Source: Escherichia coli | Lineage (GTDB): Bacteria > Pseudomonadota > Gammaproteobacteria > Enterobacterales > Enterobacteriaceae | Length of the DNA stretch: 53,280 bases | Reading direction: 5' to 3' (one strand) | Assembly (NCBI RefSeq): GCF_003334815.1 | Contig: NZ_QOWO01000028.1 | Shown: positions 49,301 through 53,280 of the stretch, piece by piece | Layout of the letters: every line of letters starts with the position of its first letter | Numbering within the stretch: the stretch's first letter is position 1 | Program-made: the position numbers and the translations under genes | The notes under the pieces: model-generated | Told to the model about the DNA's origin: nothing | Seen by the model: the letters and a program-made list of their open reading frames with translations, nothing else | The model's database searches: none

Positions 49301-50980
<1,680 letters not shown>

Positions 50981-51232
50981 TTATCGGCTTTTCTTTAAGG
51001 GTAGTCATTCGCTCCGCCTGGTGGGCGACAAAGCGTGCGGTGGATCACGTTTATTAACCTGTCAAAAAATATAACGCACTAATATCAATGGAATTTATAA
51101 AAATACCGATTTGGTGTTGTTTTTCATTTTCAGAACATTCAATCCTGCTCTCGCCGCAATCATGATATGCCATTCCTGATCTGGGTAATAGGCACAGGCT
51201 ATCTTATTGATAGTTTATATTCATGTAATTGA

Positions 51233-51246
51233 TTGATTCCTATCAA
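51233..51246 (+). promoter_or_regulatory. FNR-type binding site TTGAT-N4-ATCAA upstream of yhjA
   Basis: Perfect consensus half-sites TTGATTCCTATCAA about 108 bp upstream of the yhjA ATG; yhjA is known to be FNR/OxyR regulated. Confidence 0.5.
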
Positions 51247-51353
51247 AAAGCGTATCTCCCTGTTTTTTATGATGGCTTTGTCTCGCAGAGACGTTTGCAG
51301 CATTCTGGAAAATTTTCTGGGTCACAATAACTCACCACCGTGAGGGAAGAATA

Positions 51354-52751
51354 ATGAAAATGGTCTCACGTATTACCGCGATCGGCCTGGCTGGCGTCGC
51401 GATTTGCTATTTAGGGTTATCTGGTTATGTGTGGTACCACGATAATAAACGCAGTAAACAGGCCGATGTTCAGGCATCTGCTGTCAGTGAAAATAATAAG
51501 GTTTTAGGCTTTCTCCGCGAAAAAGGATGCGACTATTGCCACACGCCTTCGGCAGAATTACCCGCCTATTATTATATTCCTGGCGCGAAACAGTTGATGG
51601 ATTACGACATTAAGCTTGGATATAAATCTTTTAACCTTGAGGCCGTGCGTGCGGCACTGCTGGCTGATAAACCCGTTTCGCAAAGCGATTTGAATAAGAT
51701 TGAATGGGTGATGCAGTATGAAACTATGCCACCAACGCGTTATACCGCGCTACACTGGGCGGGTAAGGTGAGTGATGAAGAGCGGGCGGAAATACTGGCC
51801 TGGATTGCAAAACAGCGCGCGGAATATTACGCCAGCAATGATACTGCTCCGGAACATCGCAATGAACCGGTGCAGCCCATCCCGCAAAAACTGCCTACCG
51901 ATGCGCAAAAAGTGGCGTTGGGTTTTGCGCTGTATCACGATCCCCGTTTATCGGCTGATAGCACCATTTCATGCGCTCATTGCCATGCGTTGAATGCGGG
52001 GGGCGTCGATGGCAGAAAAACATCGATTGGTGTTGGTGGCGCAGTTGGGCCGATTAACGCGCCGACGGTATTTAACTCAGTATTTAACGTTGAGCAGTTC
52101 TGGGATGGTCGTGCGGCAACATTGCAGGATCAGGCTGGTGGACCGCCGTTGAACCCGATTGAAATGGCGTCGAAATCCTGGGACGAAATTATTGCTAAGC
52201 TGGAAAAAGATCCGCAGCTTAAAACGCAGTTCCTCGAAGTCTATCCGCAAGGTTTCAGTGGCGAAAATATTACTGATGCCATTGCTGAATTTGAGAAAAC
52301 ATTAATTACGCCGGATTCCCCATTTGATAAATGGTTGCGCGGAGATGAAAATGCGCTGACGGCGCAACAGAAAAAAGGCTATCAATTATTTAAAGATAAT
52401 AAATGTGCAACTTGTCATGGTGGTATTATTCTCGGCGGACGTTCCTTTGAACCGTTGGGGCTGAAAAAAGACTTTAACTTTGGGGAAATTACGGCGGCGG
52501 ATATTGGTCGTATGAATGTGACTAAAGAAGAGCGTGATAAATTGCGTCAGAAAGTACCCGGTTTACGTAACGTTGCTTTAACGGCACCGTACTTCCATCG
52601 CGGTGACGTGCCGACGCTGGACGGGGCGGTGAAACTGATGCTGCGCTATCAGGTAGGCAAAGAGCTGCCGCAGGAGGATGTGGATGATATCGTAGCTTTC
52701 CTGCACAGTCTGAACGGGGTGTACACGCCGTATATGCAGGATAAACAATAA
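51354..52751 (+). CDS. yhjA: Cytochrome c peroxidase YhjA (Ccp, 465 aa)
   Basis: Three CxxCH haem-binding motifs (CDYCH, CAHCH, CATCH) and an N-terminal TM anchor. Confidence 0.95.
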   Translation: MKMVSRITAIGLAGVAICYLGLSGYVWYHDNKRSKQADVQASAVSENNKVLGFLREKGCDYCHTPSAELPAYYYIPGAKQLMDYDIKLGYKSFNLEAVRAALLADKPVSQSDLNKIEWVMQYETMPPTRYTALHWAGKVSDEERAEILAWIAKQRAEYYASNDTAPEHRNEPVQPIPQKLPTDAQKVALGFALYHDPRLSADSTISCAHCHALNAGGVDGRKTSIGVGGAVGPINAPTVFNSVFNVEQFWDGRAATLQDQAGGPPLNPIEMASKSWDEIIAKLEKDPQLKTQFLEVYPQGFSGENITDAIAEFEKTLITPDSPFDKWLRGDENALTAQQKKGYQLFKDNKCATCHGGIILGGRSFEPLGLKKDFNFGEITAADIGRMNVTKEERDKLRQKVPGLRNVALTAPYFHRGDVPTLDGAVKLMLRYQVGKELPQEDVDDIVAFLHSLNGVYTPYMQDKQ

Positions 52752-52760
52752 TTAATTTGA

Positions 52761-52792
52761 TCGCCCGAACAGCAATGTTTGGGCGATTTTTA
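52761..52792 (+). terminator. Intrinsic terminator after yhjA
   Basis: TCGCCCGAACA...TGTTTGGGCGA hairpin followed by TTTTTA. Confidence 0.6.
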
Positions 52793-52862
52793 TTACGATA
52801 ATAAAGTCTGTTTTTAATATTATCATGTTAAATGTTTATATTATAAAAAGTCGTTTTTCTGC

Positions 52863-52882
52863 TTAGGATTTTGTTATTTAAA
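52863..52882 (+). promoter_or_regulatory. GAD box (GadE/RcsB binding site) of the gadA promoter
   Basis: Exact 20-bp TTAGGATTTTGTTATTTAAA about 80 bp upstream of the gadA ATG; matches the recalled gad box consensus. Confidence 0.6.
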
Positions 52883-52962
52883 TTAAGCCTGTAATGCCTT
52901 GCTTCCATTGCGGATAAATCCTACTTTTTTATTGCCTTCAAATAAATTTAAGGAGTTCGAAA

Positions 52963-53280
52963 TGGACCAGAAGCTGTTAACGGATTTCCGCTCAGAACTA
53001 CTCGATTCACGTTTTGGCGCAAAGGCCATTTCTACTATCGCGGAGTCAAAACGATTTCCGCTGCACGAAATGCGCGATGATGTCGCATTTCAGATTATCA
53101 ATGATGAATTATATCTTGATGGCAACGCTCGTCAGAACCTGGCCACTTTCTGCCAGACCTGGGACGACGAAAACGTCCATAAATTGATGGATTTGTCGAT
53201 CAATAAAAACTGGATCGACAAAGAAGAATATCCGCAATCCGCAGCCATCGACCTGCGTTGCGTAAATATGGTTGCCGATC
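52963..53280 (+). CDS. gadA: Glutamate decarboxylase GadA, 5' portion (continues past window end)
   Basis: N-terminus [69 protein letters not shown]; assigned to gadA rather than gadB because of the yhjA neighbour. Confidence 0.9.

Follow-up and report, generated by a model that had tools for sequence, protein, structure and literature searches.

A conserved FNR box beside an OxyR-type site in the treF-ccp (yhjA) spacer of Escherichia coli: the probable FNR operator of a two-input ccp promoter

In Escherichia coli, the divergently oriented genes treF and ccp (yhjA) share a spacer that carries a perfect copy of the FNR consensus TTGAT-N4-ATCAA. This raises the question of whether the palindrome serves as an FNR operator and, if so, which of the two genes it controls and which other regulators take part. 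We put the probability at roughly 90% that the box serves as the FNR operator in the ccp promoter, with FNR in a class II position at about -40.5 and with oxidised OxyR, at -92 to -56, required as well. The box as the FNR site of the ccp promoter is already known, the regulation having been published in 2007 and the physiology in 2017, and confirming the box itself adds nothing new. What is added here is modest: a conserved arrangement of the OxyR-type site, the FNR box and the -10 hexamer across enterobacterial genera, and a disagreement between ChIP-qPCR, in which the site is bound, and ChIP-seq, in which it is unbound.

The window, i.e., the whole stretch of 53,280 bases of E. coli DNA that was analysed, contains TTGATTCCTATCAA at positions 51233-51246 (centre 51239.5, no strand assigned). 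Direct reading of the sequence gives a match to TTGAT-N4-ATCAA at 10 of 10 half-site positions, and a scan of both strands for TTGATNNNNATCAA with zero mismatches returned 51233-51246 as the single match in the window. The box lies inside the 403-bp divergent treF/ccp spacer, 114 nt 5' of the ccp start codon. Hence the perfect palindrome that the original prediction had placed in the treF-yhjA divergent region is borne out in sequence, position and gene orientation. The spacer is AT-rich (GC 0.375-0.43). Over the 501 bases around the box, the sequence matches E. coli K-12 MG1655 at 100% identity, and these bases occur in 5423 of the 5426 complete E. coli genomes. RefSeq names the genes of the identical DNA in MG1655 and in thousands of E. 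coli genomes treF (alpha,alpha-trehalase) and ccp (cytochrome c peroxidase).

On the plus strand, ccp is an open reading frame of 465 aa at 51354-52751 (RefSeq ccp, WP_000784827.1), whose product is described in published work as a membrane-anchored tri-haem cytochrome c (quinol) peroxidase. Di-haem peroxidase and MauG-type domains were detected in the protein against NCBIfam with scores under the family cut-offs; no NCBIfam model reached its curated cut-off for positions 51354-52748, the best being the MbnH family di-haem enzyme at 160 bits vs. 363. Gene identity thus rests on the RefSeq annotation. On the minus strand, the open reading frame at 49301-50950 encodes the cytoplasmic trehalase TreF (549 aa; NCBIfam TreF NF009773, 1216 bits).

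First, we focus on how much a perfect box means by itself. In dinucleotide-preserving shuffles of the window the mean expectation is 0.07 perfect boxes, and 6 of 100 shuffles contain at least one, so that, by chance, a lone perfect box in 53 kb would be just mildly unlikely. The box is more than a chance match because of its position and its conservation across genera, which are considered below. Independently of this box, the window as a whole holds 44 matches to TTGAT-N4-ATCAA with up to two mismatches, where 25.2 ± 5.3 are expected and none of 100 shuffles reaches 44. This excess is probably an oligonucleotide or codon-usage effect that is missed by dinucleotide shuffling.

The position of the box can be related to the ccp promoter through a predicted -10 hexamer, TATGAT, at 51268-51273 on the plus strand, which starts 21 nt after the box and was assigned from its conservation. 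The predicted ccp transcription start lies 6-8 nt after this hexamer, at 51279-51281 on the plus strand, and would give a 5' UTR of about 74 nt. If the start is 7 nt after the hexamer (about 51280), the centre of the box would be at about -40.5 in E. coli, i.e., at a class II position, where the original prediction asks for a centre near -41.5. Among the other taxa, the conserved -10-like hexamer 21-23 nt past the box implies about -41.5 in most genera. A two-hexamer sigma-70 scan of positions 50900-51400 found no plus-strand promoter, and the predicted ccp promoter has no -35 hexamer. The lack of a -35 hexamer would be anticipated if a class II activator binds over that position, and the missed plus-strand promoter does not count against an activator-dependent promoter.

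Directly upstream of the box, pattern matching identified an OxyR-type site, ATAGgcacaggCTATcttattgATAGtttatatTCAT, at 51188-51224 (no strand assigned), which consists of four tetrads at 11-bp spacing, the fourth being degenerate. It matches ATAG-N7-CTAT-N7-ATAG-N7-CTAT at 14 of 16 tetrad positions (two mismatches), and it is unique in the window at up to three mismatches, with 0.15 matches expected. Toledano and colleagues are said to have given this pattern in 1994 as the consensus for oxidised OxyR. The site ends 8 nt before the FNR box, with OxyR on the upstream side, and would span about -92 to -56 relative to the predicted start, with its centre at about -74. Both this value and the -40.5 of the FNR box are derived from the conserved -10 hexamer and are not published mapped values for K-12 yhjA. 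Partridge and colleagues reportedly placed FNR at a class II site in 2007, with OxyR binding farther upstream. The original prediction had left out the OxyR site directly upstream of the box: FNR is one half of a two-input promoter.

Is this arrangement maintained in other organisms? A Ccp protein scan with one genome per species yielded 41 loci, and FNR-like boxes were sought in the 400 nt 5' of each ccp. At 31 of 35 enterobacterial loci, a box that agrees with the consensus at 9 or more of 10 half-site positions is centred 60-170 nt 5' of the ccp start codon, compared with 0.009 such boxes expected per locus from the rate elsewhere in the same loci. These loci belong to Escherichia, Citrobacter, Providencia, Trabulsiella, Hafnia, Enterobacillus, Yersinia and an unclassified Enterobacteriaceae MAG, and Pluralibacter, Entomohabitans and Buttiauxella have just an 8/10 box at the corresponding position. 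The distance between the box and the ccp start codon ranges from about 86 to 160 nt across genera, and the box tracks ccp. The half-sites hold, whereas the N4 spacer is variable (TCCT, TCTT, ACTT, AATT, GAAT, AAAA, ACCC, AGTG, AAGG and others). Within the species, a megablast search, which needs an exact 28-mer, was carried out with a box-centred 34-mer, any 28-mer of which spans the whole box; the exact box is present in 5393 or more of the 5426 complete E. coli genomes.

Two other ccp copies deserve mention. In Saezia sanguinis, which we take to be a betaproteobacterium, the ccp product is 73% identical to the E. coli protein and no FNR-like box occurs within 400 nt upstream. A second ccp copy in Entomohabitans teleogrylli has just an 8/10 box, located at -233. 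Horizontal transfer or paralogy with different regulation may apply to these copies.

In an alignment of 22 distinct sequences, the half-sites carry 1.67-1.91 bits, values that are partly circular given that the alignment was anchored on the best FNR box. The information content is 0.49 bits in the N4 spacer and about 0.3 bits in the flanks. The half-sites are thus constrained and the N4 spacer is free, as purifying selection on a binding site would have it. The OxyR tetrad columns reach 1.6-1.7 bits vs. 0.4-0.85 bits for the tetrad spacers, and because the tetrads sit at a fixed position though they were unused for anchoring, they provide independent support that the boxes are homologous. The OxyR-type sites of the 21 other taxa match 12-15 of 16 tetrad positions, and in 20 of these taxa the 37-mer ends exactly 8 nt 5' of the FNR box. 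In Providencia burhodogranariea, the sole exception, it ends 19 nt before the box; the additional 11 bp correspond to about one helical turn, and such a shift would leave OxyR and FNR on one side of the helix. A -10-like hexamer with A at position 2 and T at position 6 follows 21-23 nt past the box in all 22 taxa (TATGAT, TATTAT, TATCAT, CATAAT, GATAAT and other variants). The layout OxyR-8-FNR-21/22-(-10) is therefore conserved across about ten enterobacterial genera. Judged by the aligned sequences, this pattern is what a functional, position-constrained operator would leave behind, and not a chance palindrome.

The same data bear on the possibility that the palindrome arose by chance, forms a hairpin in RNA or DNA, or is a site for another member of the CRP/FNR family such as CRP or YeiL. 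The shuffles, 6% of which produce a perfect box, show that chance can create one, and a stem of 5 bp with a 4-nt loop is formally possible. However, only the half-sites are conserved across genera, which argues against all three variants. Against a hairpin, moreover, no compensatory stem changes are seen, as the arms stay TTGAT and ATCAA, the spacer has no Rfam family, and the box lies 5' of the predicted transcript; against CRP, the box has no match to the CRP half-site TGTGA. We consider any of these explanations hardly credible.

Several other small elements were noticed downstream of the FNR box. A perfect inverted repeat, GTCTC-gca-GAGAC, at 51280-51292 coincides with the predicted 5' end of the ccp transcript. 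Citrobacter has hairpins of other sequence in the same place (GTCTT-tac-AAGAC and GTCC-atata-GGAC), and small hairpins are also found there in Trabulsiella, Pluralibacter, Hafnia, the Enterobacteriaceae MAG and Providencia burhodogranariea, but not in other Providencia species. The repeat at 51280-51292 could be an mRNA-stabilising 5'-terminal stem-loop or an operator; the individual fold energies of these 5'-end hairpins are just marginally better than those of shuffles. A second inverted repeat, CTCAC-cacc-GTGAG, at 51331-51344 ends within the ccp Shine-Dalgarno sequence GAGG (51342-51345). It was marked as resembling a minus-strand terminator and forms part of the centroid fold predicted for the 5' UTR. 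The predicted ccp 5' UTR as a whole folds no better than shuffles (z = -0.75). The sole Rfam match of the spacer, to speF-leader, is at chance level (E = 0.77, 12.5 bits vs. a gathering score of 37) and was discarded.

Next, we turn to the target of the box, which could be treF instead of, or besides, ccp. DISTILLER lists treF as a high-confidence predicted FNR target, and treF was positive for FNR in vivo by ChIP-qPCR, as was yhjA, with Partridge et al. cited as independent confirmation (Lemmens et al., 2009). Furthermore, treF is 2-fold higher anaerobically in an hns stpA mutant only (Myers 2013, Table S11; PMC3688515). However, ChIP-qPCR cannot resolve two genes on one 403-bp spacer. About 290 bp separate the centre of the box from the treF start codon, which makes treF probably not the target of the box, and the only sigma-70-like match on the treF strand (51008-50980, minus strand) would put the box near -266, which is no position for activation. 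Conversely, the spacing of the box to the -10 hexamer on the plus strand is conserved, and the box moves with ccp among genera. A role of the box in treF expression is therefore unlikely.

Control of ccp by both regulators is also what published work describes, and the FNR and OxyR dependence and the ChIP-qPCR binding are taken from these papers. Partridge, Poole and Green (2007; Microbiology 153:1499; PMID 17464064) are reported to have placed yhjA under the control of FNR and OxyR, and a publication citing this paper states that the yhjA promoter confines transcription to low oxygen and peroxide. A RegulonDB curation paper gives FNR as a yhjA activator in anaerobiosis and OxyR as a yhjA activator, with Partridge 2007 as its source. 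Reviews from the Imlay laboratory list ccp among the OxyR-induced genes, place OxyR induction under hypoxic conditions, and report that Ccp lets H2O2 act as a terminal electron acceptor. The physiology of ccp was reportedly presented by Khademian and Imlay (2017; PNAS 114:E6922; PMC5565418). The curated FNR entry, the ChIP-qPCR data and the conservation across genera lend support to the proposal that the box is an FNR site for anaerobic activation of yhjA.

Genome-wide binding data give a different picture. In Myers 2013 (PMC3688515), Table S6 lists TTGATAGGAATCAA, the reverse complement of the box, at U00096.2 position 3,667,319 ("yhjA/treF") with a PatSer score of 14.16, and the box belongs to 124 "silent" high-scoring predicted sites that are proposed to be occluded by nucleoid proteins. 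Neither ChIP-seq nor ChIP-chip showed an FNR peak at the box in the wild type in anaerobic glucose minimal medium, and neither yhjA nor treF is among the FNR peaks of the hns stpA double mutant (Myers 2013). Removal of H-NS thus did not unmask the box. The gene name yhjA occurs just in Tables S6 and S12 of that study and is absent from Table S8 of FNR-dependent operons; according to Table S12, wild-type cells express yhjA 2-fold more strongly under anaerobic conditions. In Federowicz 2014, the supplements on Fnr ChIP-exo contain no mention of yhjA, b3518 or treF. The original prediction had held that a lack of FNR binding would speak against it: such a lack is indeed what ChIP-seq in anaerobic glucose minimal medium returned, and it is contradicted by ChIP-qPCR under other conditions.

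These data suggest an alternative in which the box is a consensus-looking but silent site, occluded by H-NS and IHF, and has only a small part in ccp expression, and in which ccp owes its anaerobic specificity to something else. The missing peaks in both the wild type and the hns stpA mutant speak for it, and the box lies within an extended H-NS region (3,661,953-3,667,384; 5.4 kb anaerobically and about 7 kb aerobically) that extends from the gad acid-resistance island, as well as within a 551-bp IHF region (3,667,035-3,667,586; Myers 2013). In addition, perfect TTGAT-N4-ATCAA boxes without a peak are also found inside the genes sucC, purU and yehB, and an IHF core match, AATCAATCAATTA, overlaps the left half-site. 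However, a silent site would not be expected to keep a fixed spacing to the -10 hexamer and the OxyR site over about ten genera while the N4 spacer drifts. ChIP-qPCR was positive under other conditions, and published genetics name FNR as an activator. Peroxide was absent from the ChIP-seq cultures, which means that OxyR was not activated, and the IHF core match is gone in the nearest relatives. We therefore regard a silent site as very unlikely.

Two features of the neighbourhood relate to these nucleoid proteins. The spacer between ccp and gadA, the next gene according to RefSeq (window positions 52752-53000), is very AT-rich (GC 0.30-0.33), which fits an extended H-NS region that reaches from the gad island over ccp to the FNR site. 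The IHF core consensus match AATCAATCAATTA (WATCARNNNNTTR) at 51226-51238 on the minus strand covers the gap between the OxyR-type site and the FNR box in addition to the half-site, and it coincides with the IHF ChIP-chip region of Myers 2013. The match persists in E. coli, three Citrobacter and Pluralibacter, whereas Escherichia sp., E. albertii and all other genera have lost it; its loss in Escherichia sp. and E. albertii, the nearest relatives, led us to reject it as a conserved element.

If the box is the FNR operator of ccp, how can the absence of a peak be understood? Most simply, the ChIP-seq result would be specific to the conditions used or a false negative. FNR occupancy may be conditional, which would fit a need for both anoxia and peroxide. 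A more specific possibility, which we put forward only tentatively and consider rather doubtful, is that FNR occupancy under anoxia depends on oxidised OxyR bound 8 bp away, either through a direct, helical-phase-dependent contact or through displacement of H-NS and IHF. Such dependence would explain why no peak appears in peroxide-free cultures even when H-NS and StpA are removed, why the OxyR-FNR spacing is invariant across Enterobacterales, and why Providencia burhodogranariea differs by 11 bp, about one turn. If this were true, the AND logic of ccp would be set at DNA binding and not at the recruitment of RNA polymerase.

For the ccp promoter as a whole, we infer the transcription start, the class II contacts and the cooperation of the activators, and envisage the following sequence of events. 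When oxygen is absent, dimeric [4Fe-4S]-FNR would bind the dyad about 40.5 bp 5' of the start. Bound FNR would stand in for the missing -35 element and recruit RNA polymerase, as in class II activation. FNR alone would be insufficient, and OxyR would be needed at its tetramer site, which ends 8 bp upstream of the box. To fire, the promoter would thus require both active FNR (no O2) and oxidised OxyR (H2O2 present), which makes it a two-input, AND-type promoter. Such logic would suit the enzyme, which passes respiratory electrons to H2O2 only if there is no O2 to use: a periplasmic peroxidase would be made only without oxygen and with peroxide, and would allow H2O2 to be respired.

Finally, the arrangement can be compared with promoters described before. 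In E. coli K-12, the published yhjA (ccp) promoter is the same locus, identical to MG1655 over the 501 bp, with the same regulators reported, FNR and OxyR, and with no difference of substance. The ccp box resembles the silent FNR sites of Myers 2013 (PMC3688515) in being high-scoring, without a peak and in a region enriched for H-NS and IHF. Silent sites mostly lie inside genes and have no regulatory evidence, whereas the ccp box is located in a promoter, is conserved across genera and is accompanied by published genetics. Set against most silent sites, it also stays without a peak after deletion of hns and stpA.

In class II FNR promoters such as narG, nirB, dmsA, ydfZ, ydhY and yfiD, the FNR sites are located at -40.5 to -42.5. 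In Myers' set, 19 of 23 directly activated promoters have FNR sites at -41.5 ± 4 (Myers 2013). The ccp promoter is like these promoters in that a TTGAT-N4-ATCAA dyad would lie over the predicted -35 position, with a recognisable -10 and no -35 hexamer. It is unlike the narG- and nirB-type promoters in that its co-activator is the peroxide sensor OxyR and not NarL/NarP or CRP, and in that its site is without a ChIP-seq peak in plain anaerobic glucose medium.

On the OxyR side, ccp is part of the OxyR regulon and shares with katG, ahpC, oxyS and dps a four-tetrad ATAG/CTAT site 5' of the core promoter. In the classic OxyR-activated promoters, the OxyR site abuts the -35 region. Unlike in katG, ahpC, oxyS and dps, a 14-bp FNR site lies between OxyR and RNA polymerase in ccp, and OxyR would be displaced to about -74. 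With OxyR upstream and FNR next to the polymerase, the ccp promoter resembles the co-dependent "class III" arrangement.
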